DNA of 64,000 bases from Microcoleaceae cyanobacterium (GTDB lineage: Bacteria > Cyanobacteriota > Cyanobacteriia > Cyanobacteriales > Microcoleaceae), in NCBI GenBank assembly GCA_051652765.1, contig JBOFUV010000074.1, positions 32,182-96,181 on the forward strand, written 5' to 3'. Position numbers and translations under genes: made by a program. Below, piece by piece: positions 38,195-57,595 of this stretch (its first letter is position 1; each line of letters opens with the position of its first letter). Under the pieces are notes generated by a model that saw only the letters and a list, made by a program, of their open reading frames with translations, had not been told where the DNA came from and did no database searches.

Positions 38195-38551
38195 AAACTT
38201 TCTCCGAATAAAGATCAGGTTTAGGCAATAGTTTTAAAATATTTTAGGATTTTTTAAAACTCATTTCCTGTGAAAATATAGTTTGCAGGCGATTTAAAAA
38301 TATGCAGTTTGGATCTCAACTTGAGTTAGGAAAAAGCATAAAAATAGGTTGGTAACTCTACCAACCTGCCCCTTCTCAATCTTCAATTCATTGACAGTTA
38401 ATTGTCAACTTAAGCAAAACGGAGTAAGGGCTTTTCCTACTTTTGTCCGTTCAAACCTCTGGCCTGTACTACAAATTTTCATGAATTATTTAGGATGGCT
38501 AGATAACCTTCAACTCTTGAGATCAAGTAGAAGACTTTTCTAAGACTACAT

Positions 38552-39946
38552 TTAACATTGAGATTGATAGATAAATGCAGGAAAAGTCAGAGTATCACCT
38601 GTTTTTAAAGTGACTGTAACCCAAACTTTTTCATCACATGCTCCAAGCACTTCGCTGTAGAGATGAGTTGAATCTATGGTTTTAACTTGTTGATCTAGCA
38701 CTTGTTCTTCATCACGAATCAACAACTGGATCGCATCAGGCAGGCTATCTCCTGACCTTGCTCCTAAAATAATTAATAATGTCCAGTCGAGATCTGGAGA
38801 TGGTTGTTTTAATAGCCATGTTATGGCGTACAAACGTAGTGAGTTTCCCGCCAGATCAAAATCTTGATAGCCTATGCAAGCTTCAGAAGGAATTAAAACC
38901 CCGGCTTCTTGCAAGAAAGTATTGAGAATTGAAAGAGTATCAACTCGAGTTGGAAGTTCTTGAATTGAGAGGGAAGTAGTTTCTAAACTTTGTAGATTAT
39001 CTGTATAACTACCTCGAAAACTGCCCGAAATCAGGGGAGGTAATAGTGTCCAGGATAGATTTTTTGCTACCTCATCTAATTCATTTCTGATCCAGAGCGC
39101 AAAGTTAATTGCGGGTTCAGATAGTCTTTTTAAGCTCGCTTGACGTTGAGAGGCACTAGAATCACCTATCTTCTGAATTTGAAGTTGATAAAGCCAATCT
39201 AGCAGTTCAGGATGATTGAAAATCATCTTTCCCTGTTCCCAGGTCAGGATTTCCCACAACTTTATTTCAGGGGAGGGAAATTGCTGTAAAACTTGGGTTA
39301 ATTCAGCTTGAATTTTAGCAAAGTCAGGTATAGGAGAAGTCAGCTTATTGGGTAGAACAATTGCCATTGGTTCTAGACAAGAAAGATGTAGCAACAACTT
39401 ACTGATATCTTGATCAAACCAACTGATAGGCAAAAGATAGCACCAATCCAGACCCGGTTGTAAAGAGTTAATCTGCAATTGTTTTACTAACTGGTCATAA
39501 CGAGCAAATCCCCAGATTTGAACATAGCCATCTTCTTCTAGTACATTAGTAACAACATAAAAATGAGCAATGAATTGTGGTAATTCCAACGTTAGCTGGG
39601 GAAGCTCAATTGTCTCTCCTAAGCCGTTTATCTTTAAAAGACAGAGCTTAAAATCTCCAACTTTTAGATGACAAATTGCCCCAAGAATGTTAGCCTGGGA
39701 AAGCTGAAATAAAGAGCAATATTCTCGATTAGTCATCAGTTCTGGATAATTTTCACTCAGCCATTTTTCAAACCCAAAGAGTGCCAGAGCATCTAGATAA
39801 ATGCTCCACTGTTGTGATTCACCTACTGCTTGGTTACTAATTTTAATCGCTTGATCAATCTGGTCTTGACTGAGGGCAACTGCTTCAGTTGGCAAGCGCT
39901 CGAACTCAGGATGGATACCGTCTAGATTTCTTGAAAAGCTGTTCAT
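38552..39946 (-). CDS. DUF1822-family protein
   Basis: YLDALALFGFEKWL, ICHLKVGDFKLCL, PQFIAHFYVV..EEDG.VQIWGF, INFALWI. Confidence 0.82.
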   Translation of the reverse strand: MNSFSRNLDGIHPEFERLPTEAVALSQDQIDQAIKISNQAVGESQQWSIYLDALALFGFEKWLSENYPELMTNREYCSLFQLSQANILGAICHLKVGDFKLCLLKINGLGETIELPQLTLELPQFIAHFYVVTNVLEEDGYVQIWGFARYDQLVKQLQINSLQPGLDWCYLLPISWFDQDISKLLLHLSCLEPMAIVLPNKLTSPIPDFAKIQAELTQVLQQFPSPEIKLWEILTWEQGKMIFNHPELLDWLYQLQIQKIGDSSASQRQASLKRLSEPAINFALWIRNELDEVAKNLSWTLLPPLISGSFRGSYTDNLQSLETTSLSIQELPTRVDTLSILNTFLQEAGVLIPSEACIGYQDFDLAGNSLRLYAITWLLKQPSPDLDWTLLIILGARSGDSLPDAIQLLIRDEEQVLDQQVKTIDSTHLYSEVLGACDEKVWVTVTLKTGDTLTFPAFIYQSQC

Positions 39947-40005
39947 GATATTGCTCCAATGGAGTGATATTTTAAATCTTGATTTAGATAGTTAAATTTT
40001 CAAAT

Positions 40006-41370
40006 TCATTCATGCAAAAAGTGCTCTATGACTAGACCAAGTCGTTGAATAAATAAGCTCTCACAATGAGATATGCTAGATTTTTGAGGTCGCTCTATCA
40101 ACTGACATACGGCATCTCTAATCTGCTCCAAGCGATCTGGACTGTTAAAGACATTAATGTACTTTGAAAAACGATCTTTTAGATGTGCTACTGTTCGGTT
40201 TTGAACACTAGGGTAGAACTTTCCGACTTCCAATAACCGTGTAACTTCATATTGACCCTTAAGATTAATCCGCTCGGCAATATCATTCATTGTCATGGTT
40301 TTAGTAGTTTTCTCCGAACAAAAATAAAGTTTGAGAGCTACAGGATATTTGGCAACCTTATCTGGAGTACGACGATTGAGAGCAACTAGCCGGGTTTGAA
40401 TTGTTTCTACAATTGCCTGATCTAAACATTCAACGACTGAACTCATTTGTTCTTCGAGTTCATCAGCTTCAGCAGAGGGGTTTGGAATTCTTTCAAGTAT
40501 TTTGGAATGATCTATTGAGTCTTTTAAAGTTATTCCTCCTGCCTCACGGATTTTGTGGACTCGTATTTTTTGTGCCAAATCAAGTAGGTTTTGCAGAATA
40601 ATATTAGGGAATAAACTAATTCCTAATCTTGTCTCAAATTCAGACGCGATTTCTTTGATTTGTATTTCTGTAGGTAAAGGACAAACTCCCTTTTTTTTGC
40701 TGTTACGCCACTGAGCCCGATAAACCTGATGATAGCATTGAAGTAGAAGCTGATTCTCAGTCACTTCTTTGTCGGTCAAAACACCACAATTTGCCAGAAC
40801 TTGTAAGTCTTTAGGCTGTGTTTGATTTAACAAAGCCCAGTTAGTAGCCATTAGAATTCCATGTTCTAAAAACAATCGACGCACGTCTGGATGTTGCCGA
40901 ATTTTTAACCTAATCCAAGTCCCTAAACTACTCAGTTTGGGGTTAAATGATTTTATGATTTCAACAGCAAAAGATTGGTAACTATGGCAGAGAGAATCAA
41001 GAATAGATGAAGTGATATCAACATCATTCAGGATCAATACAAGAACTTCAGTAAGCTTAATACTGCATTGGTGACTAAATTGATGGAGTAAGTATTGACT
41101 AGATTGCAAAATTGCATTGGAGATATAGCACCGTAGGCAGATCTCTGCTACAAATTGAGTAGCTGAATCAGGTGAATTTTGCAGTTGATCAAACAATTGA
41201 GTTTGAACTCTTTTGAGCTTTTGATTGTCTGCCACTAAACGTTCATCGTTAGCTTTCTCTAAAAGACAAGCAAAATGGGTTTTTGCTTGAGGTATATTTT
41301 GCCGAATGTAATTTCCTCCATCTGTTATTCTGACAAATGTCCAGTACCAAGATAGTTCATGCATAAACAT
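40006..41370 (-). CDS. Sigma-70-like/HTH protein of the type found upstream of DUF1822
   Basis: AEICLRCYIS, SFNPKLSSLGTW, WALLN, C-terminal LKLYF..MNDIAERINLKGQYEVTRLL HTH. Confidence 0.6.
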   Translation of the reverse strand: MFMHELSWYWTFVRITDGGNYIRQNIPQAKTHFACLLEKANDERLVADNQKLKRVQTQLFDQLQNSPDSATQFVAEICLRCYISNAILQSSQYLLHQFSHQCSIKLTEVLVLILNDVDITSSILDSLCHSYQSFAVEIIKSFNPKLSSLGTWIRLKIRQHPDVRRLFLEHGILMATNWALLNQTQPKDLQVLANCGVLTDKEVTENQLLLQCYHQVYRAQWRNSKKKGVCPLPTEIQIKEIASEFETRLGISLFPNIILQNLLDLAQKIRVHKIREAGGITLKDSIDHSKILERIPNPSAEADELEEQMSSVVECLDQAIVETIQTRLVALNRRTPDKVAKYPVALKLYFCSEKTTKTMTMNDIAERINLKGQYEVTRLLEVGKFYPSVQNRTVAHLKDRFSKYINVFNSPDRLEQIRDAVCQLIERPQKSSISHCESLFIQRLGLVIEHFLHE

Positions 41371-41466
41371 TTCCCTGATGGTTAGCAGGCTTGGTTCCTA
41401 ATGGCCTGTCTTCTCTTAATACTAGTTCTACGAGCCTGCAATTTTATGCACATCTCTACGCCCATC

Positions 41467-42255
41467 TCACGAACGACAAAATTGTGAAGTCAGCCTTTCA
41501 GCAACTCTATTCAATTCTGGGGAAGGATTCTTTACCCCATAGATTTCCTGGAGAGCATCTGCCCAGAGCTGTTTTTGGGTAAAGTAATTTGCCCGTTCCA
41601 GAGTCATCCTTTCTGATGAATCAACCGGAGAGAGTTTTAGTTGATTTAATTCAGTTTGGATCTGTCGATGTTGTTCAGTATCGACAACTTTGAATTGCAC
41701 AGGCGGCATAGCCATTCTAGAGCTAGTAGCAGTTTCAAACACTCGCCATTCGTAAGTTTGACCTGGTGTTAAAGGTTCTCCATCATATTGTACAACAACA
41801 TAATTTACTGGAGATTCCTGAGGTATTTTTGTCCAACTCCACAGGGGCTTTGTATCAATATCACTCTCTTGTAAATGCAATTCAACCCGAGCTACATTAC
41901 CTTGCCAGATAAATGTTGGTTTTAAAGTCCAGATGGCTTCTATTGTCATAGATTGACCTGGAGCAATGGTACAAATTTCTCCGCGAGAGCCCCCTCGCCG
42001 TCGCTGTCCAGAATTGATTGCCGCTTCAATTTCTTCCCAGGAATTCGTTTGAGTCGCCAGATGAATTTCAGAGGTTTCTGTGTTTGGATGATTAGCCAAG
42101 GCAAGATCTGTGACAACTCCAAATAGAGCAGTTCCCACAATTACCCATGGAAAGAGAAGTCGAGACGATCTTAAAAGGTTATATTCTAGAGAATTAAGTT
42201 TTAAAGAATTAAGTTTTAAAGAATTAAGTTTTAAAAAACCATGACTAATTTTCAT
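41467..42255 (-). CDS. DUF928 exported protein
   Basis: GGSRGEIC.IAP, PTFIW, LTPGQTYEW, LWADAL; 4-bp overlap with the upstream gene. Confidence 0.82.
   Translation of the reverse strand: MKISHGFLKLNSLKLNSLKLNSLEYNLLRSSRLLFPWVIVGTALFGVVTDLALANHPNTETSEIHLATQTNSWEEIEAAINSGQRRRGGSRGEICTIAPGQSMTIEAIWTLKPTFIWQGNVARVELHLQESDIDTKPLWSWTKIPQESPVNYVVVQYDGEPLTPGQTYEWRVFETATSSRMAMPPVQFKVVDTEQHRQIQTELNQLKLSPVDSSERMTLERANYFTQKQLWADALQEIYGVKNPSPELNRVAERLTSQFCRS
42191..42235. repeat. In-frame 15-bp repeat GAATTAAGTTTTAAA x3 (LKLNS)
   Basis: Direct reading. Confidence 0.92.
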
Positions 42256-44660
42256 TTAATTTTCTCCTTGTAGGACGGTAATAGATAGATCCAGTAAACT
42301 GCTGAGGGCAACAACCAAGGCAACAAAATATTTGCCGAAACGAATAACTGCAAGCTAAATACTCCATAGAGTACTGTTACTAGCAACCCCTGCCGAAGCC
42401 AATACTGTTCAGTTGGGTAAAGCATCGTTGTTACTTTACCCAGCAGAGCTGCCAAAGGAATTAGCCACAATGGCGGAATCTGCCAGACAAAATGTCTGTG
42501 TAGCCAATGATGAATCATGTAGGCATGAAATTCGGCTCCGATGACTAACTTTGTGTCTCGCCGCCAGTAAGCCATGGGGAGGGGCATGGGGAATGTGTCT
42601 TCTCCCAGAGCAATGCCCGCTTCGTCATACCCTCCAGGGGTCAGGATAGGAATCTGATATTGAAGACCTGAATTCAACACTGTCTGAGGCCGTTGAATTG
42701 GCTGATCCAAAAGCTTCCAGGCCGGGATTGAGTCATAAACCTGTTCAGGGGGAATGGAAAAGTCAATAATTGGTTTTGGCCCATTGAACAGTCGTTGCCA
42801 GGGAGGTACATTCAAATGCTTTTGAAGAAAAATCAAAGTTGGGGAAGCTCGTTGATTTTTTATGCTATCTTGGGCAATATTCAGAATTCTGCTGCGAAAA
42901 TCTTTTGTATTGTTAGCAGGTTGCTCAGAGGATAAGAGAGATGAAGGCTCCTGTTGAAGTTCACTGGAGAGAGCCAGAATATAGGAGAATGGACAGGCAA
43001 ACTGACAGGATTGAGCGGCTGGAAGTTGCTCAATAACAGAGTCGGTAAAGTCAATATAGCCCTTTAAACTGTGCTCTGATTTAGCCACAACAACATTACT
43101 TTCTCTCCCATTCATTGGGTCTTGCAAACTAGCAAACACAATCCAGGTTTCCTGTTTTATTGCCTGATGTACAACTTTTTCAAGGGCTAAATCTTCTTTG
43201 GGATCTGCAAAAGGGCGATCAAGAATGTAGTCAATTCCAATTACATTGGGTTGAGAATAAAGTAACTGTTCCAAAATCTTTGCTAGTAAGATTCGGTCAA
43301 TTGGATGAACTTTTGTTGCGGCAATTTTTTGTCTTTGTATGGTCTCTTCATCAATTGTGACTAACTTAACTAATGGCGCAGTCTGAGGAATTTGGTGAGT
43401 GATGTCTCGATAAAATGCTTGTACCCATAATCGAGGATATAATAACAGATTTTCAGTAGGTAGTAAGCTCAAGCACAAGAAAATTAGTAACGTAGTTATT
43501 TCCCTTCGAGTGAGACAATAACCTAGGGGTTTGAGCTGAAATAATGGAGTATCTGGATGACGAAATAAGGAAGGAACTAAATGACCAGAAGGATAGGTAA
43601 TGTGGCAGGTCTTTTTTAGTTGCTCACAGGTCAACAAAATGGCTTCATGAACATCTTTATAGTTTTTAATCTCATCTAGAAAGCGAATTAAAAATTCTTC
43701 TGCTACTTTGTTGTGAATGGGTTCTCGCATCACTGCAACCTGACCTAAACCAACGGCATCAATTAGTGTGTTTGCAATACTCAAACCCTCACAAGAGTTA
43801 AACAATGCAAATTGTAGTCCTCGCTGTTGAGCCTGTTTTAAGTAAGGTAAAAGTTCTGTGATCAAAATTCCGGTATTGGGAGCGATCGCCAGTTCTCCTC
43901 CTGTGATTTGAGTCTCATTACTATGCCCCATAAAAATCAATAAATCCCATCCTTCATTATCAGCAATGGTCTGACAAACTTGTTCTTTTAGATTCTCCAA
44001 GTTATCTCCTTGCCAGCCAATAAAACTAACTTTAACTCTTCGTTGAATCAGGGATTGAATTGCCTGTGTTTCCCGAACGAAGTTCAAGCCCGTATCATCT
44101 CCTGAAATAACTAATACTCTGGTTGTTCGTCGAGGAGAGGATTGTCTGATATCGGCTTTCATACTGGCTGGAGTTCGAGCGATTCGAATCATTTTTCTAG
44201 CTGTAAGCTGAACTCCAATTTCCCATGCTTCCCAGGGTAGCCTCGATAGTTCCTCAGAGTAGCAAGTTAGGAAAATATCCACATAAACAGATGATGAATG
44301 ATTGATAGCATTAAATGAAACAACTGCCTGAGAAAGGGTTTCTCTAATTTCTAAAAGCTTTCCATCGCTGAGCCACCCGTGAAACTCAGATAATAGTTCT
44401 GCCTCTGCCTGAGCCACCTGCTTGCGCCAGTCAATTTGACCATCATTCACGATGTTCAAATTTCCACTAGCCTTTACCCGCGCTCGCATTGACTGATAGA
44501 AGTTGAGATATGCCTCACGCCACCTACGATAGGCAAGAATAACCGTTTGCGGATAGACAATCTGAGTGCCCAACTCTATACCAGTTCCACAAGTCAGTTC
44601 AAAGAAACAAACCTGCTCAACAGAGCGAACCTTCAGGCGAAAATAAGGTGGAATTGTCAT
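42252..44660 (-). CDS. CHAT (caspase-like) + CHASE2 membrane sensor
   Basis: RLPWEAW, LIFMGHS, LFNSCEG; TM; LVTIDE, PNVIGIDYILD, GAEFHAYM; C-terminal TM helices. Confidence 0.85.
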   Translation of the reverse strand: MTIPPYFRLKVRSVEQVCFFELTCGTGIELGTQIVYPQTVILAYRRWREAYLNFYQSMRARVKASGNLNIVNDGQIDWRKQVAQAEAELLSEFHGWLSDGKLLEIRETLSQAVVSFNAINHSSSVYVDIFLTCYSEELSRLPWEAWEIGVQLTARKMIRIARTPASMKADIRQSSPRRTTRVLVISGDDTGLNFVRETQAIQSLIQRRVKVSFIGWQGDNLENLKEQVCQTIADNEGWDLLIFMGHSNETQITGGELAIAPNTGILITELLPYLKQAQQRGLQFALFNSCEGLSIANTLIDAVGLGQVAVMREPIHNKVAEEFLIRFLDEIKNYKDVHEAILLTCEQLKKTCHITYPSGHLVPSLFRHPDTPLFQLKPLGYCLTRREITTLLIFLCLSLLPTENLLLYPRLWVQAFYRDITHQIPQTAPLVKLVTIDEETIQRQKIAATKVHPIDRILLAKILEQLLYSQPNVIGIDYILDRPFADPKEDLALEKVVHQAIKQETWIVFASLQDPMNGRESNVVVAKSEHSLKGYIDFTDSVIEQLPAAQSCQFACPFSYILALSSELQQEPSSLLSSEQPANNTKDFRSRILNIAQDSIKNQRASPTLIFLQKHLNVPPWQRLFNGPKPIIDFSIPPEQVYDSIPAWKLLDQPIQRPQTVLNSGLQYQIPILTPGGYDEAGIALGEDTFPMPLPMAYWRRDTKLVIGAEFHAYMIHHWLHRHFVWQIPPLWLIPLAALLGKVTTMLYPTEQYWLRQGLLVTVLYGVFSLQLFVSANILLPWLLPSAVYWIYLLPSYKEKIK

Positions 44661-44767
44661 AGATGATGCCGGATTTCAATCTGATTGCTTATAGTTTTTT
44701 GCACTCAGGTTTTTATGCAGTTTTGGCTTTATTCCAGAATTTCATGGGTGATTTAGCAGAACTCAAT

Positions 44768-46603
44768 TCAAAAATGATAATTAATATTAAAGTAAATGCC
44801 GTCATCTTGAATATTATTCCGGCGATCGCTCAAATCCACCAAAGGCAGTCCATAATCTAACTTTAAACTCATCCCTTTAATTCCCAGAAATGGTTCCCAG
44901 ATTAATCCCAATCCAGTTCCAGCCAGAAAGTTTTGACTCAGCAACTCATTGGGATTATTGGGCTGGTTCCAGACTGAACCTAGTTCTATAAAGGGAATAA
45001 TTTGGATCACGGGATTTCCCGAAGCATTGCGGGTTATAGTCACCCGATCTTCAATTGAAAAGCGAAAACCACTGTCTCCCGTTCGGACATTTTGGCGATA
45101 GCCCCTAACGGACTGAACACCACCAATGACCAACTGTTCAGAAGGCAACAAACTATCAGCAGCCAGTTGTAAATCCCCACGAATAACTAATAAGTGTCTC
45201 TCTCCCAATAGCTGCGCCCGTTGCACCTGACCTAACCAACTAAAAAATTCCCCATCGGGTACAGGAGAATCATTATTAGTTGCGCTAACAATTCCCAGGC
45301 CAAAGTTAAATTGCGATCGCATTGACCAGGAACCATGGGGATCTCGTTTGATGTAATCCTGACCAAATTGCAATACCCGAGTGTAACTGTTACCATCCTC
45401 ATCTGGGCCGATTCCAAAGGGTTGAGGAATATTATCAAAGGCAAAAGTCTGGCCATTTTGTAGGGCAAAACCCAGGGAAAGAATGAGTTCTTCTCTGGGG
45501 TTTCGGATCACAGGTTGATAATAGTTCAATTCATAACGAATCTGTTCTCCTCGAATGCCTAAATCGTCAAATGGATCTTGAGTGACTTCATTCCAGTTGG
45601 GTGAAACTCGCAGTTGAATTGTCCCATTCATCGGATTGACAGGAATGCTATAGGCAAAATCCAATACATTGGCTCCGCCTGTTGTGGTGCGGGAATAGGA
45701 GGCCGAAATTGCATCTCCTACCCCGTGGATATTGCGAAAACCTAAACCAATTCCGATGCGTTCTCCACCTACGCTAGGAGGTGAGTAATTATCAAAGCTA
45801 AGATTAGCAATGAAAGGACTTGCTTCATTAACTCGAACAATTAAAATACTTTTTCCAGCTTCTCCTTCGGGTCGTAAACTAGCTTCAATATTATTAAATA
45901 ATGGGTCAATTCTTAATAACCTGAGTTGATCTTCCAGCTTGCCAACATTCAGGGGTGTTGTGGCTCCCAGTTCAATCCGACTACGAATATAGCTCGTATT
46001 AACTCGCTGATTTCCTTCAATCTCAATTCGGGTCAATTCTCCCTCAGTCACTCGAATCTCAAGAATTCCTTCCTCAATAGTTTGAGAGACAGGTCTGGCT
46101 AGAGAAGTAATATAACCTGCGTTGATGTAAAGCTGAGTAATCTCATCGGCAATCTGACGCAGTTCTTCCAGGGTTAATTTTCGATTTTCATAGGGTTGAG
46201 TGACTGAATTAAAGTCAGCTTCAGTAAAAACCGTACTTCCTGTAACGTTAAGTTCACGCACAAAAATCTGTATGGATTCAGGGTTAGAAGTAGGTTCATC
46301 AGGTGCATCTTGAGCTTGAGTTAGAAGATCTAAATTTTCCTGACTTTCAGGAGCAAACAATAAATCTTCTATTGTTATTTTTGATACTCTATCAATAGAC
46401 TTTGATTCACAACAATGCTGCGCTTTTACGGAAGGGGATACAAAAGTAACTAACATTGACCCATAAATCATCCAGGCTTTAATCCAGGACTTAATCCGGA
46501 ATTTAAACCAGGAATTAATCCAAAAGTCAAAAAGGACTATTAAGGGCACACTTTTTCTTTCCCATCCTGGATTAAGATTAGCAAATCTCAACATTAACCC
46601 CAT
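44768..46603 (-). CDS. ShlB/FhaC/HecB-family two-partner secretion transporter (TpsB)
   Basis: POTRA (ITQLYINAGYITS), GGVQSVRGYRQN, terminal aromatic residue (INYHF); start uncertain (46603 or 46471). Confidence 0.93.
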   Translation of the reverse strand: MGLMLRFANLNPGWERKSVPLIVLFDFWINSWFKFRIKSWIKAWMIYGSMLVTFVSPSVKAQHCCESKSIDRVSKITIEDLLFAPESQENLDLLTQAQDAPDEPTSNPESIQIFVRELNVTGSTVFTEADFNSVTQPYENRKLTLEELRQIADEITQLYINAGYITSLARPVSQTIEEGILEIRVTEGELTRIEIEGNQRVNTSYIRSRIELGATTPLNVGKLEDQLRLLRIDPLFNNIEASLRPEGEAGKSILIVRVNEASPFIANLSFDNYSPPSVGGERIGIGLGFRNIHGVGDAISASYSRTTTGGANVLDFAYSIPVNPMNGTIQLRVSPNWNEVTQDPFDDLGIRGEQIRYELNYYQPVIRNPREELILSLGFALQNGQTFAFDNIPQPFGIGPDEDGNSYTRVLQFGQDYIKRDPHGSWSMRSQFNFGLGIVSATNNDSPVPDGEFFSWLGQVQRAQLLGERHLLVIRGDLQLAADSLLPSEQLVIGGVQSVRGYRQNVRTGDSGFRFSIEDRVTITRNASGNPVIQIIPFIELGSVWNQPNNPNELLSQNFLAGTGLGLIWEPFLGIKGMSLKLDYGLPLVDLSDRRNNIQDDGIYFNINYHF

Positions 46604-46628
46604 CGTTTTTTTCTCCCAGGGTGCAACT

Positions 46629-49600
46629 ATGAACGCGGTCAAGTTTTCTATCTGGTTTCGATTGCTACTGGTCTTGCCTACTACTATTCTGCTAAATTTC
46701 CCATTCCCCCCAGCAGTTGGCCTGACAAGTTCTGCTTTAGATTCGGAAAAATCTTTATTGAAATCATACTCTGCTCTTGAGTTTTCAGAACCTGAATTTT
46801 TAGAACCTGAATTTTTAGAACTTGAGTTTTTAGAACTTGAGTTTTCAGAACTTGAGCATCCAACCCAAAATTCTGTACTACTTTTGACTCAGGCCATCAC
46901 CCCTGCGAATGACGGTACAGGCACTCTTGTCAGCCCAGAAGGCAACCAATTCAATATCGACGGTGGAACTCGTTCGGGAGATGGAGCTAATTTGTTCCAT
47001 AGTTTTGAGAAATTTGGTTTAGATGCGGGCGAGATCGCTAACTTTTTATCCAATCCTGACATTCGCAACATTTTGAGCCGAGTGGTGGGGGGCGATGCCT
47101 CGATCATTAACGGGCTCATCCAGGTGACAGGGGGCTCATCCAACTTATTTCTGATCAATCCTGCGGGAATTATCTTTGGCCCCAATGCCAGCCTGAACCT
47201 GCCAGGGGACTTCACCGCCACAACTGCCAATGGCGTGCAATTCGGAGACCACTGGTTCAATGCGGAGGGGCTCAGCACCTATGAAACTCTGGTCGGGAAT
47301 CCTACGGGGTTTGCCTTCACGATGGCCAATCCTGGCAGCGTGGTTAACCTGGGAACCTTGGCCCTGGAGCCGGGGCACAACCTGACGTTGCTGGGGGGAA
47401 CAGTGATCAATGGGGGACAACTCAGCGCCCCTGAAGGTCAGATTATAGTTACAGCGGTACCGGGAGAAAATTTCGTGCGAATTAGCCAGGATGGCCAGTT
47501 GCTTAGTCTGGAAATTCGACCGATCACTCCAGATAGCGATCGCCCGAATGATTGGTCTCTGCCGATTACGGCCCTGCCTGATCTGCTTACCCGAGGGGCA
47601 GAGGGCTATGGAATGGAGGCACGGGTAAACCCAGACGGCACGGTGGAATTACAGGTTGAGGAAACGACTATTCCAGTCGATGCTGGAACGGCAGTGGTTT
47701 CGGGGCGTTTGGACAGTTCGGGGGAGGCTGGAGGAACCATTGGAATTTTCGGTGAAAAAATCGGGGTGATTGCTGCTGAGATAGATGCCTCTGGAACCCA
47801 GGGCGGCGGAACGGTGTTGGTGGGAGGTGGGTACAAAGGCCAAGGCGATGTACCAAATGCCCTGAGAAGTTTTGTTGATCAGGATTCAGTGATTAGCGCG
47901 GATGCCCTGATGAATGGTGAAGGCGGACGGGTGATTGTGTGGGCGGATGAAGCCACTGGATTTTATGGTCAGGCTAATGCACGGGGTGGTAATGAATCGG
48001 GGAATGGCGGTTTTGTTGAGGTTTCTGGAAGAGAGTATTTGGATTTTCAGGGAACTGTTGATGTGAGTGCCCCGATGGGAAATCCAGGAACGTTACTCCT
48101 TGATCCTCGAAATATTACGATTTCCAATGACCCAAGTTCATCAGGAGTTGATGAGGAATTTTCAATCATTAATCAAGATAACTTTGAGAATGAAGAGATA
48201 ACAATTAACCGAGATTCTTTGCAAAATCAGACAGGCGAAATTATTCTAGAGGCCAGTGATAACATCACAATTGCAGAAGGAGCTTCACTGAGTTTTGTTC
48301 CAGGAGAAGACATAACATTTACTGCCGACGCAAATCAAGATAATATTGGTAACTTTCAAATGGCTCAATCTCAATCCATTACAACTTCTGGTAGAAGCAT
48401 TAGTATTTCAGGTGTAAATATTACAGTTGGTATCATTGATGGTCGCGGAGATAGAAATGGTAATATTAATCTAAATGCTTTGGGAGATAGCACTACAATT
48501 GATGTTCGTTCTCCGGAGGATACCAATGCTTTATTAACCAGTGGAGCGGGAGAAATCAATCTTTTTGCCCCTGGAAATAACAGTCAAATTATTCTTGAAG
48601 GAAACATTTCTAGTCTAATTACTGATGCAGGAAATATTAACCTCACTGCTGGAAATGCAGCAGCCAGCGATGGGGGTTCTATTCAGATTAGGGGGAGTGG
48701 AATTGCAACTGTCTTTTCGCCTACTCCGATTACAATCAATCTGAATGCTTTAGGCAGTGGCAGTGAAATTAATGCTACAACAATCGCTGCATCTAGAGGA
48801 ATCATTAATTTTAATGTTGGTAGTGAAACCGCGACCCAACTCAGCTCGATTACCGTAGAACGCTTCATTGGAACATCTGGGATCAAAGGTGGTGCAGTTA
48901 ATATTAATCTTCTCGGAAATAATAGTTTTCTTGCTATTCCAGGTGATATTCGCACAACAGGCGGGAGTGTCAATATTAATGTAGGTAATTCAAATAGCTC
49001 AGGGAACTCAATTCAGATTGAACAAATTGATACAGACCGAGGTGATCTCGATCCTGATCTGACGAATGATCTGGATGACTCCAACAGAGATGCTAGCATT
49101 ACAATTAACGCTCCGGGCAGTGGTAGCGAAATTACTTTAGGTAATTTAAATACGACTGGTGGAAATGTTTCTGTTACAGCAGGTAATACAACAGCTAATC
49201 AGCCCAGTTTAATTCAAATTAATAACCTTATTGAAACAAGTAGCAATGGAAGTGGTGGAAATGTCAACCTTCAAGCACTAGGAAATGGTTCTGAAATTAC
49301 AACAGAAGACATTATTACGAATGGAGGCTCTGTTACTTTAACAGCAGGTAGTAATACTTCAGAAAATCCTAGTTCTATTAATTTAGGGTCGATTAGTACT
49401 TTTGATAGTTCTGGCAGTACTCCAGGTGGAGATATTACGATTGAAGTTCTTGGTAATGGTGGCACAGTCACCACTGCTGATACTCGAACAGGTGATCCAA
49501 CTAACCGAACTGTAGAGGGCGGAAATTTTGAGGTTACTGTGGGGAATAGTGCTGCAACTAATCCAAGTTCAATACTTTTAGATGCTATTAATACTAATGG

Positions 49601-52600
49601 AGGAGATATTACTCTTACTGTTTTGGGAAATGGAAGTAGAATTGAAACTATTAGTAGTGCAACTGGGTTTGGTGATATTAGAACAGATAGAGAAGGTGGA
49701 GTTGGAGGAAACGTTACTTTCACAGCGGGAAATGAAGCCTCAACTACTCCCAGTTCTATTGAAATAGGCCCAGTTAGAACTGATGGAGGAAATATAAACC
49801 TTACAGCTTTAGGAAATGACAGCACAATTACGACGAGAGTTTCAATTGCTACTTCTGGAGGTGAACTTAACCTCTCTGTACCGGATGGGAGTGTGATAGT
49901 CTCGAGCCAAGTTGGTCTGACTCAACCCGTCGGAGATATCAGAGTTGAAAGTGGGGATGTCACTCAGTTTAATGCAAGAGTTCTAGCTAATAGTTTAACA
50001 ACTGATAATGAGGGAACGACTGAACTTAACGCTGATATTACAACTACAAATGATCAAATTTATAATGATGCAGTCAGTCTTCTCGGAGACATTATTCTTG
50101 ATAGCAGTTTAGAGGATGGAAATATTGAATTCAGATCAACTTTGAATGGAAATTCCAATCTACAACTAAATTCTGGATTAGGAAATATTGTTCTAGGAAT
50201 AGTTGGAGATCAAACACCCTTATCTTCCCTAATCATTAATACGACAGGTCAAACTAATTTAGGGGGTAACATTAATATTGAAGGCTCAGGCGGGCTGAAC
50301 TTTACTAATCCGCCGAATATTCTACTAACCTCTGATGTTATGATTGATGTTAGTGCAGGAACAGCAGGAATTGATTTTAGTGGTGGAACTGTTGATGGAA
50401 ACTTTAATCTTAGACTGATAGCAGGAGATGGTGATATTACGTTAGGAGTGATTGGAGAAAACACACCTCTTTCTTCTCTGACAGCTAGTAGTTCAGGCCA
50501 AACTAATTTAAGTGGAAATATTACAACAAGTGGAGCTGGAGGAGTTAATTTTTCAGATATTACGGCACTTAATCTGACTGCTGATATTGGTATCAATACA
50601 AGTGGCAGTAAAGGTTTAGACAGTGGAGTAATTCTCTTAAATGGTGGAACAGTCAATGGAGCCGTTGCCTTGGGGTTAGATTCAGGTTCAGGAGAAATTT
50701 TCTTGGGTCAAGTAGGAAGCAACGAAGCCCTAAACTCTCTCAGTATTCGTACTTCAGGTTCAGTAATACTAGATGGAAACCTAACGACAAACGAGAGTAT
50801 TGACTTCACAAAAGTAACAGGTGGAACACAGATTAATACTAATACTATAATTACCAGCAACAACGGTAGTATTTTATTTAATGGTAGTCCAATTTCGGGA
50901 GAAGGGAACAGTTTAACTTTTGATACTCCGAATGAAGTCTCTTTAGACAATGTAGGAAGTCAGGGAGGAGAACTTGGAGAATTAGTTATTGGTAATGCTA
51001 ATATTGTTAACTTATTTGGCAACATTTTTACCAATGGAGGAATACAATTTCCAACTGTAACAACCATCAATCTAAATGCAGATTTAATTACGTTAGAAAC
51101 TGATAGTGATAATGGAGATGTTAATCTTGCTAATGCACTGATTACAGATGAAGGTCAGTTAATTATTAATGTTGGAACAGGAAATGTTGGTTTGGGATCG
51201 GTAGGAACTAAAGAAAATGTACTAGGAGGATTAACCATTGAAAGTGCAACTAACATCAATCTTTCAGGCAATATTTTCACGGATGGAGGCATAGACTTCT
51301 CAGGTGCAGAAGCAATTAATCTTGAGGCCAGTGAGATTCGACTTCAAACCAACAGCGATGATGGAAATGTTAATTTTACAGGCTCACTAGTTACTGGTAA
51401 CAGTGCATTAGTGATTAACGCCGGGGCAGGAAATGTTGGTTTGGGATCGGTAGGAACTAAAGAAAATGTACTGGGAGGATTAACCATTGAAAGTGCAACT
51501 AACATCAATCTTTCAGGCAATATTTTCACGGATGGAGGCATAGACTTCTCAGGTGTAGAAGCAATTAGTCTTGAGGCTAGTGAGATTCGACTTCAAACCA
51601 ACAGCGATGATGGAAATGTTAATTTTACAGGCTCACTAGTTACTGGTAACAGTGCATTAATTGTTAATGCTGGAGCAGGCAATATCAGTCTAGGAGGTGT
51701 AGGAAGCCTCAATCAACCCTTAGGACGTTTGACGATTGAAAGTGCAACTGACGTGAATCTTTCAAGCAATATTTTTACCAATAATGGTTTAGATTTCTCA
51801 GGGGCAGAAACGGTTAATCTTTTGGGAACTGAGATTATTCTTCAAACTACGAGTGAAACTGGAGCGATTAATTTGTTCGTTCCTGTTAATGCTTCTGGCG
51901 AGGGGACTGGGAATCTGACAATTAATACTGTCAACGGTCAGGTTGATTTGGGAATTATAGGAGATCAAAATCCAATCGCATCCTTAACTGTTAACACCGC
52001 AGGTCAAACTAATTTGGGTGGAAATATTACAACTTCAGGAGCAGTAAACTTCAGCGGCGCATCGAATGTTGATTTGATTTCTGATGTCGTTATTGATAGC
52101 AGTTCAGGGAATGGGGAAATTAATCTGAATGGCGGGAATATTGATGGAACTTTTGACCTAAGCTTGAATGCGAATTCAGGAAATATCACACTAGGAACAC
52201 TTGGCAGCAATATTCCTCTGCAGAACTTAACAGTCAACAGTACTGGAACCACTTTATTGAACAGTACAGTTAATGCAGAAAGTTTAACAACTAACCCTGA
52301 AGGCATCACTCAACTCAATGGAAATGTTACTACCAGTGGATTAGCAGGTCAAACTTATAATGACAGCCTGATAATTCTAGATAATCTGACTTTAACCGGG
52401 GATGAAATCAACTTTGAAGGCACTGTATCTGGAAATAATTTTGACTTGACTTTACAGCCTTTTAGCTCAAATCGAGCAGTAAATTTAGGCAATACAAGTA
52501 ATATTCCTAACAGCCTTAATCTAACCAATACTGAACTGAATTTACTCCTGAATGCCTCACAGAATGGCTTTAATTCCCTGACCATTGGCAGTGCTGAAAC

Positions 52601-55064
52601 AGGTCAGATCAACGTTATGGGAAATATCATCTTCAACGATCCAGTCACTATTCGTTCTGGTTTGAGTTCTATTCAAGCACCAGATTTCACCTTCAGTGGA
52701 GCCGATAACGCCACTTTAACTTTAGAAGCCAATCAAAATATCAATGTTGGAGGAATCTTCAATCCCAACCGTTCAGTGAGCTTAACCACCGCCAACGGTT
52801 CTATCACTTTAGGCGATCTAGTTGCCAATCCCGTCAACTTAACCACAGATGGAGGAGCAGTGACTCTTTCTCCCAGTCAAAACTTGAACTTAAGGAACCC
52901 AACTATTTTAACCAATGGTGGTGACTTCTCCGTCAATGGTTCCGGCATGATTCAACTCTCTGGTTTAGGTCAGGTACAGACAGCAGGTGGAAACATCAGC
53001 TTCAACGGTACAGAGATCCTCAACACAATTCCCCTGGATGCCAGTAACACTTCAGGTCAAGGCGGCGCAATTAACCTGACAGCCCGAACTGGCGGAGTCA
53101 CAACCGATGATCTCAACAGTTCCGGCTCTGCCGGAGGGGCAATCACGGTTGATGCTGTGATCGCCATCACAGCAGGAGAAATCAACAGCAGTGGTAGCCT
53201 TGGCAATGGGGGTAACGTTAGCCTCGATCCCGAAAATGACATCGAAGTTGAGTTTATCAATGCTCAGGGTGGCCCTAGTGGTCGAGGTGGAGATGTATTG
53301 ATCAGCACGGAACGATTTTTCCGAGCAACCGGTTCCTTCAATGATCAAAATAATGTAGAATCTAGTATTTCTACAGTTAGCGGTCAGGGTGGTGGCTCTG
53401 TTACCATTCGCCATGGTGGCGGGCTTTTGCAAGATCCAAGGGCAAGGTTTGTGGTGGGAGCAAGTCTTACTGAAAATGGAACCGCAGCGGCTATTACAAC
53501 AGGAGAATTTACAATTGGTGAACCCAACTCTTTTGAAGGGTCTTTCCAGTTAGGAAATATTTCAATTGAGACTGATGATTTAATCCCTCAATCATTGTTA
53601 GGTAATGAACTAAGTGATGAAGCTGAGGATCAAAATTCTCAACAAGAAAGACTTCGGACGCTTGGAGATTTAATTCCTCGAAAAGAACCTGTAGAATCCT
53701 TGGAAATTGCCACTGAGTTACCTTGTGTTCCGATTGATGCTGGCGTTATGGCGATTGAGCGAAGCTATACTCAAGAGTTTGCAGAATATTGGGGAATTTC
53801 AACCGATGATGCTGTAAAAAGTTCAGTAGAAGTTTGCAATGCTCTGGGAGATATTGCTGGAGTTACAGGAATCAAACCTGCGGTGATCTATGCAAACTTC
53901 GTGCCTGTAGATTATGACCTTACAGCGGATCAAAACTCCTTAGAAGTTAAGCCATCAGCATTAATTGAATCCCCAGAATCTCCTCAAAATCAAGGAACGG
54001 ATGAACTTGAAATTATCCTTGTCACCGCTGAAGGTCAACCTATTCGCAAACGAGTTCCTGGCGTGACTCGTACCAAAGTTGAGCGAGAAGTTAACCAATT
54101 TCATGGTGCATTATATCGTTCAGAACAACGAGGAAATCAAAGTTATTTACCCTCGGCTCAACAGCTCTATCAGTGGTTAATTGCACCCATTGAGGCAGAG
54201 TTACAATCTAAAGATGTTGAAAATCTTATTTTTATTATGGATGAAGGACTCCGGTCTTTGCCTTTGGCAACTCTCCATGATGGTCAACAATTTTTAATCG
54301 AAAACTACAGTGTTGGTCTAGCACCCAGCTTAACCCTAACTGAAACTCGCTATAGCAATATTAAAGAGGCCAAAGTTCTGGCCATGGGAGCCTCAGAATT
54401 TAATGAATTTAACGAGCAGGTTAGTGGCTCTAATCTGGGTTCATTACCTGCTGTTCCTCTAGAACTTTCGACAATTTTTCAAAGCTCTTGGGAAGGAAAA
54501 TTATTGCTAAATGAAGCCTTTACTGTCGAGAATCTTAAAGCTCAGCGAAATATAACTCCCTTCGGTATCCTTCATCTTGGTACCCATGCGGTATTTAATT
54601 CAGGAGAACCAGATAGCTCCTATATTCAATTCTGGAATGAGCGACTTGGACTGGATCAAGTCCAAGATTTGGGCTTGAATCAACCGCCTGTGAAGTTATT
54701 AGTCCTGAGTGCCTGCGAAACAACAATAGGCGATCGCCAAGCTGAGTTGGGATTTGCCGGATTTGCGGCTAAAGCAGGAGTTGACTCTGTGCTAGCAAGC
54801 TTATGGTCAGTGAATGACAAAGGAACTTTTGCATTGATGGCAGAATTCTACCAGCGTCTTGCAAATGCCCCAATCAGGGCTGAAGCCTTGCGACAGGCCC
54901 AAATTGCCATGCTGCGGGGAGAAATGCAGTTTGAAGGCGATCGCTTGATTCTGCCCAATCGAGGAGAAATTGTTGTTTCTCCAGAACTTGCTGAACGTTA
55001 TATCTCGGATCTGTCCCATCCCTACTATTGGGCGGCCTTCACGATGATTGGTAGTCCCTGGTAA
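46629..55064 (+). CDS. Filamentous-hemagglutinin-like TpsA with C-terminal CHAT protease domain
   Basis: NLFHSF, NLFLINPAGIIFG TPS domain; beta-helix repeats; LHLGTHA, LVLSACET, SLWSVND, HPYYWAAF. Confidence 0.93.
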   Translation: MNAVKFSIWFRLLLVLPTTILLNFPFPPAVGLTSSALDSEKSLLKSYSALEFSEPEFLEPEFLELEFLELEFSELEHPTQNSVLLLTQAITPANDGTGTLVSPEGNQFNIDGGTRSGDGANLFHSFEKFGLDAGEIANFLSNPDIRNILSRVVGGDASIINGLIQVTGGSSNLFLINPAGIIFGPNASLNLPGDFTATTANGVQFGDHWFNAEGLSTYETLVGNPTGFAFTMANPGSVVNLGTLALEPGHNLTLLGGTVINGGQLSAPEGQIIVTAVPGENFVRISQDGQLLSLEIRPITPDSDRPNDWSLPITALPDLLTRGAEGYGMEARVNPDGTVELQVEETTIPVDAGTAVVSGRLDSSGEAGGTIGIFGEKIGVIAAEIDASGTQGGGTVLVGGGYKGQGDVPNALRSFVDQDSVISADALMNGEGGRVIVWADEATGFYGQANARGGNESGNGGFVEVSGREYLDFQGTVDVSAPMGNPGTLLLDPRNITISNDPSSSGVDEEFSIINQDNFENEEITINRDSLQNQTGEIILEASDNITIAEGASLSFVPGEDITFTADANQDNIGNFQMAQSQSITTSGRSISISGVNITVGIIDGRGDRNGNINLNALGDSTTIDVRSPEDTNALLTSGAGEINLFAPGNNSQIILEGNISSLITDAGNINLTAGNAAASDGGSIQIRGSGIATVFSPTPITINLNALGSGSEINATTIAASRGIINFNVGSETATQLSSITVERFIGTSGIKGGAVNINLLGNNSFLAIPGDIRTTGGSVNINVGNSNSSGNSIQIEQIDTDRGDLDPDLTNDLDDSNRDASITINAPGSGSEITLGNLNTTGGNVSVTAGNTTANQPSLIQINNLIETSSNGSGGNVNLQALGNGSEITTEDIITNGGSVTLTAGSNTSENPSSINLGSISTFDSSGSTPGGDITIEVLGNGGTVTTADTRTGDPTNRTVEGGNFEVTVGNSAATNPSSILLDAINTNGGDITLTVLGNGSRIETISSATGFGDIRTDREGGVGGNVTFTAGNEASTTPSSIEIGPVRTDGGNINLTALGNDSTITTRVSIATSGGELNLSVPDGSVIVSSQVGLTQPVGDIRVESGDVTQFNARVLANSLTTDNEGTTELNADITTTNDQIYNDAVSLLGDIILDSSLEDGNIEFRSTLNGNSNLQLNSGLGNIVLGIVGDQTPLSSLIINTTGQTNLGGNINIEGSGGLNFTNPPNILLTSDVMIDVSAGTAGIDFSGGTVDGNFNLRLIAGDGDITLGVIGENTPLSSLTASSSGQTNLSGNITTSGAGGVNFSDITALNLTADIGINTSGSKGLDSGVILLNGGTVNGAVALGLDSGSGEIFLGQVGSNEALNSLSIRTSGSVILDGNLTTNESIDFTKVTGGTQINTNTIITSNNGSILFNGSPISGEGNSLTFDTPNEVSLDNVGSQGGELGELVIGNANIVNLFGNIFTNGGIQFPTVTTINLNADLITLETDSDNGDVNLANALITDEGQLIINVGTGNVGLGSVGTKENVLGGLTIESATNINLSGNIFTDGGIDFSGAEAINLEASEIRLQTNSDDGNVNFTGSLVTGNSALVINAGAGNVGLGSVGTKENVLGGLTIESATNINLSGNIFTDGGIDFSGVEAISLEASEIRLQTNSDDGNVNFTGSLVTGNSALIVNAGAGNISLGGVGSLNQPLGRLTIESATDVNLSSNIFTNNGLDFSGAETVNLLGTEIILQTTSETGAINLFVPVNASGEGTGNLTINTVNGQVDLGIIGDQNPIASLTVNTAGQTNLGGNITTSGAVNFSGASNVDLISDVVIDSSSGNGEINLNGGNIDGTFDLSLNANSGNITLGTLGSNIPLQNLTVNSTGTTLLNSTVNAESLTTNPEGITQLNGNVTTSGLAGQTYNDSLIILDNLTLTGDEINFEGTVSGNNFDLTLQPFSSNRAVNLGNTSNIPNSLNLTNTELNLLLNASQNGFNSLTIGSAETGQINVMGNIIFNDPVTIRSGLSSIQAPDFTFSGADNATLTLEANQNINVGGIFNPNRSVSLTTANGSITLGDLVANPVNLTTDGGAVTLSPSQNLNLRNPTILTNGGDFSVNGSGMIQLSGLGQVQTAGGNISFNGTEILNTIPLDASNTSGQGGAINLTARTGGVTTDDLNSSGSAGGAITVDAVIAITAGEINSSGSLGNGGNVSLDPENDIEVEFINAQGGPSGRGGDVLISTERFFRATGSFNDQNNVESSISTVSGQGGGSVTIRHGGGLLQDPRARFVVGASLTENGTAAAITTGEFTIGEPNSFEGSFQLGNISIETDDLIPQSLLGNELSDEAEDQNSQQERLRTLGDLIPRKEPVESLEIATELPCVPIDAGVMAIERSYTQEFAEYWGISTDDAVKSSVEVCNALGDIAGVTGIKPAVIYANFVPVDYDLTADQNSLEVKPSALIESPESPQNQGTDELEIILVTAEGQPIRKRVPGVTRTKVEREVNQFHGALYRSEQRGNQSYLPSAQQLYQWLIAPIEAELQSKDVENLIFIMDEGLRSLPLATLHDGQQFLIENYSVGLAPSLTLTETRYSNIKEAKVLAMGASEFNEFNEQVSGSNLGSLPAVPLELSTIFQSSWEGKLLLNEAFTVENLKAQRNITPFGILHLGTHAVFNSGEPDSSYIQFWNERLGLDQVQDLGLNQPPVKLLVLSACETTIGDRQAELGFAGFAAKAGVDSVLASLWSVNDKGTFALMAEFYQRLANAPIRAEALRQAQIAMLRGEMQFEGDRLILPNRGEIVVSPELAERYISDLSHPYYWAAFTMIGSPW
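46776..46856. repeat. In-frame 15-bp repeat x5.4 encoding (L/P)EF(S/L)E
   Basis: Direct reading. Confidence 0.9.
51178..51659. repeat. Near-identical 249-bp tandem duplication in tpsA
   Basis: GGAAATGTTGGTTTGGGATCGG at 51180 and 51429; 83-aa repeat. Confidence 0.92.
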
Positions 55065-55079
55065 TTTTTCTCATATTTC

Positions 55080-55121
55080 AAGAACTACTTTAAGAACTAC
55101 TTTAAGAACTACGTCAAGAAC
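55080..55121. repeat. 12-bp tandem repeat AAGAACTACTTT x3.5
   Basis: Direct reading. Confidence 0.85.
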
Positions 55122-56942: not shown

Positions 56943-57458
56943 CTAACTCCGAATTGACACCTGCAATACAAGGATCAACATATTCGCTAAATAGCTCACG
57001 GTATGAGCCCTTAGGACAGTTTTAAATCGACTCACGATGCCTTGCATAAAAACTGGAGAAGTAGCCAAAGTATTAGAACCTCTCGAACTCCTGGTAAAAC
57101 CATCATCATTAACCAGGATTTTTAAAATTTCAAATCCTTGGATTTTAACAAGCAAGAAAAGCAGGAAGTAAAAGATAATAATTGAAAGTAAATTAACTGA
57201 GAACTGATCCATTTGATATCGACTCAGATATGACATGATGCTGAACTGAAAGTCCTCAGAAGCCCCCAAGAAAATCGAGAAAAAGATGAAGTATCCAATA
57301 ATTTCTGCAAACAGATTAACTGCAGTTGCGTACTTCACGCTTTCCCTTGGCGTGAACCTCAGATTTGTTCTAAAAACAAATGCTTCAATGTGGATAGAAA
57401 TCAGTAAGCTTAGTGCTCTAGAGAGAAAAACCCGGGCAATTAGTACAGTTGGTTCCAT
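56943..57458 (-). CDS. fraC: Filament integrity protein FraC-like
   Basis: LLISIHIEAFVF..L.F...SVKYATAVNLF..IGYFIFF; likely start at 57458. Confidence 0.72.
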   Translation of the reverse strand: MEPTVLIARVFLSRALSLLISIHIEAFVFRTNLRFTPRESVKYATAVNLFAEIIGYFIFFSIFLGASEDFQFSIMSYLSRYQMDQFSVNLLSIIIFYFLLFLLVKIQGFEILKILVNDDGFTRSSRGSNTLATSPVFMQGIVSRFKTVLRAHTVSYLANMLILVLQVSIRS

Positions 57459-57595
57459 AAGACCCCCAAGTTGGTTTGATCTCAGATGCTTTCGAAGGAA
57501 ATATACCTTCTCTGTAGTGTAAGCTGATAGGCTACACTCGGTTATCAGGGGTGACCACCTACGCTTCCCCAAACTCAGCCCATAGTTATATCCCT

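Follow-up and report, generated by a model that had tools for sequence, protein, structure and literature searches.

Proteins in which an EACC2 domain and a caspase-like domain are joined to variable sensors, including CHASE2, and which are encoded beside an extracytoplasmic function (ECF) sigma factor and a DUF1822 protein, were described computationally by Kaur et al. in 2021 (PMC8195603). A caspase–CHASE2 membrane protein had been noted in 2012 (PMC3501461), and the location of CHASE2 beside DUF928 in 2017 (PMC5587647). In this study, we analysed a locus of this kind in a 64,000-nt stretch of a contig from a Microcoleaceae cyanobacterium (the window). The locus encodes an EACC2-like/CHAT/CHASE2 sensor, a DUF928 protein, a sigma-like protein of 454 aa and a DUF1822 protein, together with a two-partner secretion (TPS) pair, TpsB and TpsA, the latter ending in an exported CHAT domain. 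The core, consisting of the EACC2–caspase–CHASE2 sensor, the ECF-like sigma and DUF1822, is not new, because it was catalogued in PMC8195603. The new elements are the variant locus, a TGCAT-N18-AACTA motif kept at four places, an amidase/lysozyme candidate output gene and a conserved Arg311 in DUF1822. Our preferred reading, to which we assign a probability of about 0.55, is that a signal received via DUF928 and CHASE2 would activate the inner CHAT, which would cut DUF1822 after Arg311 and thereby release the sigma-like protein for feedback and cargo expression.

The window shares with the systems of Kaur et al. a caspase and CHASE2, preceded by a conserved N-terminal domain at the position of EACC2, and the adjoining sigma-like and DUF1822 genes. 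The likeness to their TRADD-N-independent form extends to the catalytic dyad, the CHASE2 with transmembrane (TM) helices, DUF1822 and the adjacent sigma-like gene, and the Pfam scan of our locus gave no TRADD-like_N match at E≤0.05. In the accessible part of PMC8195603, however, autopeptidase activation is proposed, no substrate site, promoter or regulon is named, and DUF1822 is called a tetratricopeptide repeat (TPR) protein, whereas no TPR was seen in our DUF1822 model. The window also differs in its rearranged gene order, in the exported CHAT fused to TpsA and in its distinct promoter class. The supplement of the same article includes an operon with an added TM plus beta-rich gene and a TPR–caspase.

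Three described systems use a related logic. In Anabaena PCC 7120, the membrane CHAT protease HetF cuts PatU3 at Arg|Ser, R117|S118 (PMC9457339), and PatU3 is the likely anti-sigma factor encoded beside sigmaHetZ (PMC13342950). SigmaHetZ is a proven ECF-type sigma factor with the order i1, sigma2, i2, sigma3.2, sigma4, i3 (PMC13342950), and this six-part order is similar to that of the sigma-like model from the window. The two systems differ in the sensor (periplasmic TPRs in HetF, CHASE2 here), in the −35 element (TCCGGA there, TGCAT here) and in being developmental and conserved there but patchy here. In the type III-E CRISPR system Csx29–Csx30–CASP-sigma, a CHAT protease likewise cleaves the inhibitor of a sigma factor, within a flexible loop of that inhibitor, and sigma motifs lie within the locus itself (three there, four predicted here); unlike the window, its trigger is target RNA via Cas7-11 (PMC10028731). 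No match to a Cas protein or to Csx30 was obtained, either in Pfam/NCBIfam scans of the 13 proteins around our locus or when the PDB was searched with the profile and the model of DUF1822. The type III-B SAVED-CHAT–PCaspase system has two serial caspase-like proteases and a sigma factor with its inhibitor in one locus, but that cascade is cytoplasmic and triggered by cyclic oligoadenylate (10.1101/2023.06.23.546230), while here the proteases would flank the inner membrane.

In our literature search, subscription journals and part of the PMC8195603 supplement aside, no experimental study of the cassette family was found. With subscription journals mostly outside its scope, the search also returned nothing that connects a TGCATA motif with a cyanobacterial sigma factor and, among titles and the starts of abstracts, nothing on the window system that combines CHAT with two-partner secretion.

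Organization of the locus and its predicted proteins

The following features were identified. As the initial annotation had described, six intact open reading frames (ORFs) make up the locus, five on the minus strand and TpsA on the plus strand; both His–Cys dyads (outer His2653/Cys2696, inner His246/Cys290) and a 4-nt overlap of the DUF928 and sensor genes were also found.

46629..55064, plus strand: TpsA-type exoprotein, 2811 aa (Pfam)
44768..46642, minus strand: TpsB/ShlB outer-membrane transporter (Pfam POTRA_2 and ShlB)
44692..44719, minus strand: predicted promoter 1, TGCAT-N18-AACTA, 31 nt before the sensor ATG
42252..44660, minus strand: EACC2-like/CHAT/CHASE2 sensor, 802 aa (Pfam and architecture)
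41467..42255, minus strand: DUF928 protein, 262 aa (Pfam)
41423..41450, minus strand: predicted promoter 2, 52 nt before the ATG of the sigma-like gene
40006..41370, minus strand: divergent sigma70-like protein, 454 aa (AlphaFold2 model, fold searches and paralogue link)
39989..40016, minus strand: predicted promoter 3, 42 nt before the DUF1822 ATG, overlapping the stop codon of the sigma-like gene
38552..39946, minus strand: DUF1822 protein, 464 aa, candidate anti-sigma factor (Pfam and model)
38346..38367, minus strand: terminator-like hairpin between DUF1822 and promoter 4 (consensus match only)
38279..38306, minus strand: predicted promoter 4, outward-facing, 84 nt before the hydrolase ATG
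35330..38194, minus strand: 954-aa candidate output protein (Pfam)

The DUF1822 protein (Pfam E 1e-42) carries the candidate cut site. Its model consists of a nuclease-like N-domain (41–195), a helical middle, a disordered linker (309–332) and an Ig-like C-domain (357–460; Z score 7.9). Arg311 (codon 39014–39016) was present in 72 of the 79 aligned rows, where the triplet usually read MRS or LRS; the pattern [MLFV]R[SGATD] was found within the linker in 73/79. On the linker metric, conservation against variable neighbours, Arg311 ranked 1/48, and it lies inside a segment of the model with a predicted local distance difference test (pLDDT) value below 50. As a positive control, the invariant Arg of PatU (29/29 sequences) ranked 2/68 by the same metric; this residue lies 139 aa from the C-terminus compared with 141 for R117, and the two were equated by this distance, not by alignment. 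In distant DUF1822 paralogues, the triplets FRN, IRS and WRS precede the C-domain. This conserved [ML]R|S arginine resembles R117|S118, the position cleaved by HetF in PatU3, and the inner CHAT is likely to cut DUF1822 at Arg311. The N-domain matched nuclease folds with Z scores of 8.8 (root-mean-square deviation, rmsd, 4.0 over 134 aa) and 8.3; the Foldseek search with the model gave no match at E≤0.001, and comparison of the profile with PDB sequences gave nothing meaningful. The expected PD and (D/E)xK strands read CNL and KxCLI, and no conserved catalytic acid or lysine was recognized in the domain, its topology having been read by eye, not by residue-level superposition.

The predicted protease, the 802-aa sensor, matched CHASE2 at E 3e-13 and CHAT below the Pfam threshold (E 0.021), and its paralogues exceed or come near the CHAT cut-off. 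It is composed of an EACC2-like region (about 1–125), CHAT, a TM helix (388–406), CHASE2 (418–736) and a C-terminal TM region, with hydrophobic helices at 388–406 and 758–776. His246 and Cys290 of the inner CHAT were invariant in 58/58 full-length homologues. The initial annotation took CHAT for the only cytoplasmic domain of the sensor, which did not hold: a domain of about 125 aa, conserved across the same 58 homologues, precedes it. This domain was named EACC2 from its position and the architecture in PMC8195603, not from an EACC2 model. Its Arg59 (codon 44484–44486) is also invariant (58/58) and occurs as LRG, MRG or FRG, the same hydrophobic-Arg-small pattern as at Arg311. The DUF928 protein (Pfam E 1e-6) has a hydrophobic segment at 33–51 and conserved Cys95 and Cys260. 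Its Arg91 (codon 41983–41985), kept in 52/53 sequences and ranking 5/16 on the linker metric, is preceded by a small residue and would therefore suit a different protease.

The sigma-like identity of the 454-aa protein, proposed by the initial annotation, was indicated weakly by its predicted structure and not by family matches. No significant Pfam or NCBIfam match was obtained, the best being sigma70-ECF at E 0.031; scans of 76 family members gave weak, scattered matches only, and a search of PDB sequences with the family profile gave nothing meaningful. The AlphaFold2 model (mean pLDDT 83.7) shows an N-extension, a sigma2-like part (52–171), a SANT/SLIDE-like helical insert (175–280), a disordered linker (284–305), a sigma4-like part (326–395) and a C-extension. 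Both fold searches ranked sigma factors first (sigma32, Z score 7.2, rmsd 21.8; best Foldseek E 0.039). Residues 52–171 matched domain 2 of SigA with a Z score of 6.8 and an rmsd of 3.2 over 95 aa, residues 326–395 matched sigma4 domains with a Z score of about 5, and residues 175–280 matched SANT/SLIDE with a Z score of 7.2. Atlas neighbours of the protein carry Sigma70_r4 at 0.91–0.95, and a distant paralogue in the same genome, which matches the family profile at E 1.7e-5 and Sigma70_r4_2 at E 6e-9, adjoins a DUF1822 gene. Taken with the model, these links suggest that the protein is a sigma factor, an identity that rests on indirect evidence. The recognition helix predicted for sigma4 hardly varies (QY/F-Q/E-VTRLL), which would fit a constant TGCAT element. 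Among seven long sigma-family matches scanned, natural fusions of sigma with DUF1822 (P0166) and of CHAT, TRADD-N and sigma (P0199) were detected. Fusion partners seen across P0080, P0198, P0199 and P0166 were an AAA_35 NTPase, TRADD-N, CHAT or DUF1822.

TpsA matched TPS at E 4e-44 and CHAT at E 2e-70 in Pfam. It is arranged as a hydrophobic N-terminus, the TPS domain, a repeat stalk (249-nt repeats at 51159–51821) and the C-terminal CHAT, with the dyad codons His2653 at 54585 and Cys2696 at 54714; in aligned outer-type CHAT domains, the His was kept in 43/46 and the Cys in 42/46 rows. Both features of two-partner secretion, the exoprotein and a POTRA/beta-barrel partner, are thus present. TpsB probably starts with the ATG at 46603, a codon that is also present in L004, the related locus of the same gene order described below. 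The likely start codons of TpsB and TpsA then lie head-to-head, 25 nt apart (46603–46629), as in L004, so that the promoters of the two genes would have to sit inside the opposite gene.

Contact-dependent growth inhibition systems (CdiA/CdiB) consist of a TpsA protein with a C-terminal enzyme domain beside TpsB, and have a polymorphic toxin tip and an adjacent immunity gene. The window resembles them in that a TpsA with a C-terminal enzyme domain adjoins TpsB. Such a system was judged unlikely here: TpsA is followed not by a small immunity gene but by one for a PfkB kinase, and the tip is not polymorphic, its CHAT being conserved in the orthologue and paralogues.

Predicted promoter motifs and the candidate output gene

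The regions upstream of related sigma genes were searched for a shared motif, and the canonical bipartite motif TGCATAAG-N-CAGAaATA was found. With a matrix trained on 76 of the 80 upstream regions, 60/80 regions scored at least 15 (0.05 in shuffles, 6 on the reverse strand). Both paralogues in the host genome carry the motif upstream and represent a fair test, because they were left out of this training. The canonical motif precedes 56/75 related sigma genes, 8/40 secreted-type CHAT genes, 5/27 TPS genes and 48/379 other neighbour genes; many of the motif-bearing neighbours, read by eye, start with a signal-peptide-like sequence. At a score of at least 14, the canonical motif is absent from the window.

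The window carries instead a variant, TGCAT-N18-AACTA, at four minus-strand sites located 31–84 nt before the sensor, sigma, DUF1822 and 954-aa genes. L004 carries the variant at all four corresponding positions, and the spacers there have diverged. The promoter class of the window differs from that of the two other paralogous cassettes of the host. A scan for the sigma70 consensus gave matches at chance level, and terminator-like hairpins were not enriched over shuffles (10 versus 10.2).

The 954-aa protein, whose gene lies beyond the region covered by the initial annotation, contains RTX repeats, a DUF2272/CHAP amidase, two peptidoglycan-binding domains and a lambda-type lysozyme domain (Pfam), and its lysozyme part matched 1am7 at E 1e-26. 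The transcription unit probably extends leftward to this gene (35330–38194), and the amidase/lysozyme is likely the output of promoter 4. Only domain-level matches to the protein were found in two congeners and in genome G047. In L004, promoter 4 precedes genes for 3-deoxy-d-arabino-heptulosonate 7-phosphate synthase, an aromatic amino-acid lyase, an AMP-ligase and a thiamine pyrophosphate enzyme. Because the gene set after it differs in this way, promoter 4 appears to face outward and to serve different cargo. The segment L004:13050-19390 is likely an aromatic secondary-metabolite cluster under the sigma of the island.

Other sites were also recorded. The best canonical site in the genome precedes an RTX-subtilase gene, and strong canonical sites away from cassettes were found at C136:4946, C17:27649, C37:30535, C28:55033, C22:13512, C68:10437, C77:27452 and C55:11613. 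Together they may form the regulon controlled by the sigmas of C106 and C113. For two of the sites, the 3 kb downstream contains no long ORF, and their targets may be small genes or RNAs. A second motif, AGGAGGTGaAAaAATTgAg, was observed upstream of about half of the related sigma genes and may be a ribosome site or a leader element.

Distribution of the cassette and the variant block

A GTDB profile search with the 454-aa protein returned 167 relatives, of which the best 80 were taken as loci; gene counts refer to subsets of these with enough flank, and the profiles were built from the same loci. The usual gene order is sigma, DUF1822, EACC2-CHAT-CHASE2 and DUF928. DUF1822 was found in 74/75 loci and, among loci with enough downstream flank, the sensor in 53/61 and DUF928 in 48/61. 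Two things on which the initial annotation had staked its cascade and which could be checked computationally were not contradicted: sigma2-like and sigma4-like parts are predicted in the 454-aa protein, and the genes co-occur. TPS or secreted-type CHAT genes occurred in 39 of the 52 loci of at least 15 kb, compared with 7% of random windows, a background taken from this one genome and set against mutually related loci. These partners vary in type and position, and some look like outputs because the sigma motif precedes them. Fused TPS-CHAT was found in 0/52 loci, although the 10-kb flanks can cut such genes. In the host genome, TPS and CHAT are fused in three more complete genes, whose contigs carry no cassette gene.

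The window is a rearranged, long-branch variant of the known core. Its order (TpsB, sensor, DUF928, sigma and DUF1822, with TpsA divergent) recurred in one of the best 80 of 167 loci, L004, and its sigma paired with that of L004 on a long branch (stem 1.56, SH-aLRT 100) when 76 rows were placed in a quick tree. A relative of the sigma was present in 38 of the 60 family genomes, with identity above 35% only in G047 (68%), and the variant is syntenic in 1/60. G047:C170 is collinear with window positions 38543–55067 at about 66–76% nucleotide identity and keeps all six genes as one block, its TpsA being 3526 aa long with a CHAT tip; L004 and G047:C170 were counted as one case. A frameshift or assembly artefact was ruled out because the ORFs are all intact and the block is syntenic in a second genome. 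The block was not found in two genomes of the same genus (98–100% complete, 180–190 contigs), and metagenome scans confirmed no close relative of the window type, leaving a clade of two genomic loci and two database proteins (57–67% identity, no genomic context). The GC content at third codon positions (GC3) of the six genes is 0.27–0.36, compared with a genome mean of 0.448 (sd 0.065). On this compositional and distributional pattern we infer a putatively transferred island.

The host genome also has a canonical cassette (C113), a sigma–DUF1822 pair (C106) and a lone sensor (C42). More distant DUF1822 cassettes lie at C34:60570-63184 (a Sigma70_r4 sigma and DUF1822), C115:38557-45472 (DUF1822 and two CHAT proteins ending in periplasmic-binding domains) and C54:1221-4490 (DUF1822 and CHAT-CHASE2), each DUF1822 having an Arg motif ahead of its C-domain. 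The filament integrity gene fraC lies in the window (56943–57572) and hetZ lies elsewhere in the genome, and the host therefore looks like a filamentous cyanobacterium. On the same right flank is a DUF5942-subtilase gene (59426–61249), and both it and fraC resemble ordinary host genes. On the left, a gene for a trypsin-like protease fused to WD40 repeats (33176–34984, plus strand), common to both congeners, converges on the hydrolase gene. Tandem repeats of 12–15 nt at 42171–42238, 46470–46522 and 46776–46856 lengthen the N-terminal regions of DUF928, TpsB and TpsA, and a fourth (55080–55121) stands just after TpsA; those of TpsB and TpsA are absent from L004.

Proposed cascade and competing explanations

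In the preferred reading, a periplasmic signal would pass from DUF928 to CHASE2 and switch on the inner CHAT, probably with self-cleavage at EACC2 Arg59. DUF1822 would act as the anti-sigma factor, and its cleavage after Arg311 by the inner CHAT would free the sigma-like protein. The freed sigma would then transcribe the sensor operon, its own gene and DUF1822, giving both positive and negative feedback, and would also drive the gene after promoter 4, here a secreted peptidoglycan hydrolase. The system may best be read as a mobile analogue of HetF–PatU–sigmaHetZ. A separate hetZ, followed by a patU-like gene, is present at another place in the host genome, and the HetZ/PatU models NF037963 and NF037965 matched three other loci in the genome but not the window. 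This negative makes it less probable that the proteins are a HetZ or PatU, not that they work like one.

Several observations weigh against this reading. Profile comparison, with shallow alignments, gave a probability of 3% for homology of the sigma-like protein with HetZ and of 0.14% for that of DUF1822 with PatU (C-terminal global score 1.9, versus 2.6 for shuffles), so that the HetF/PatU precedent is an analogy only. The sigma70-ECF family was matched at E≤0.01 by only 10/76 family members, and the fold matches of the sigma-like protein are middling, none reaching a Z score of 8 or a Foldseek E of 0.001. Each fusion is represented by one database protein and may be an artefact of read-through. 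Arg59 ranks only 42/153 on the linker metric. The locus counts are not independent, because the loci are related. The comparison of four variant sites in the window, all on the sense strand ahead of start codons, with 0.13 expected from shuffles overstates the motif, because the pattern was defined after the sites had been seen. Across the genome the variant is not enriched (6 matches, versus 3–14 for other spacings); 4 of the 6 lie within the window, and only their clustering and position are unusual. Neither motif, variant or canonical, was found upstream of TpsA or TpsB.

The role of the exported CHAT divides the possible readings. In an extended version, the locus would be a portable two-tier caspase cascade across the envelope: TpsA-CHAT, by a cut at Arg91, would turn DUF928 into a tethered CHASE2 ligand, the inner CHAT would clip both its own EACC2 cap (Arg59) and DUF1822 (Arg311), paralogous cassettes in one cell would be insulated by different promoter codes, and the outward promoter would capture antagonistic cargo, a cell-wall hydrolase here and an aromatic-metabolite cluster in L004. 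We regard this version as doubtful. The weakest step of the proposed chain as a whole, initiation by TpsA-CHAT through a cut of DUF928 at Arg91, is itself rather unlikely, and carries a low weight because related exported CHAT and TPS genes can carry the sigma motif. That same fact, seen at 8/40 secreted-type CHAT and 5/27 TPS genes, favours a tentative alternative in which the inner switch works as proposed but TpsA-CHAT and TpsB are cargo or output, such as an adhesin or exported protease, and DUF928 is a standing co-receptor for another ligand. Consistent with this alternative are the variable type and position of the partners, the presence of TpsB in the flank of only 1/52 loci, and the three other TPS-CHAT fusions without a cassette gene on their contig. 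It is opposed by the frequency of TPS or secreted CHAT near the sigma (39/52 loci, versus 7%), by the six-gene block in G047:C170, by the retention of Arg91 in 52/53 sequences and by the lack of a sigma motif before TpsA or TpsB in the window.

The inner switch itself has been viewed differently. Under the model of Kaur et al., the caspase would cut itself at EACC2 Arg59 and DUF1822 would be an adaptor or co-activator, perhaps DNA-binding, and not a cleaved anti-sigma factor. The invariance of Arg59 (58/58), the resemblance of the DUF1822 N-domain to DNA-binding nuclease folds (Z scores 8.8 and 8.3) and the autopeptidase activation proposed in PMC8195603 agree with it; it does not account, however, for a conserved Arg311 that stands alone in a disordered linker, or for the FRN, IRS and WRS triplets before the C-domain in distant paralogues, and we consider it unlikely. 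It is improbable that the 454-aa protein, instead of being a sigma factor, binds DNA as an activator or repressor, with the motif as its operator or the promoter of another sigma: the absence of a significant family match and the SANT/SLIDE-like middle domain would suit such a role, but the sigma2-like and sigma4-like parts stand in the right order, and the motif is bipartite without being a palindrome, keeps one spacing and one orientation, and varies with the protein clade. The initial annotation also suggested kin sensing or programmed death, for which we found no support, the candidate outputs being envelope or secreted proteins. A death or abortive system, in which the nuclease-like domain is freed or the induced hydrolase lyses its producer, could draw on the PD-(D/E)xK-like fold, on the amidase/lysozyme gene after promoter 4 and on the abortive infection caused by CHAT cascades in type III-B CRISPR (10.1101/2023.06.23.546230). 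The expected catalytic strands nevertheless lack a conserved acid or lysine as read by eye, many motif-bearing neighbours have signal-peptide-like starts, and promoter 4 of L004 precedes metabolic enzymes; we therefore hold this explanation to be very improbable.

The sigma family is widespread in cyanobacteria, with relatives in 38/60 family genomes, and the variant offers defined handles: three arginines, two cysteines, four predicted promoters, one output gene and a 20-kb island. These exact handles and the distinct promoter class make it a clean target for reconstitution. The variant also provides a lead to what CHASE2 receptors sense. Its reconstitution would test whether the heterocyst HetF–PatU–sigmaHetZ logic is one case of a wider cyanobacterial design of caspase, anti-sigma and sigma factors.

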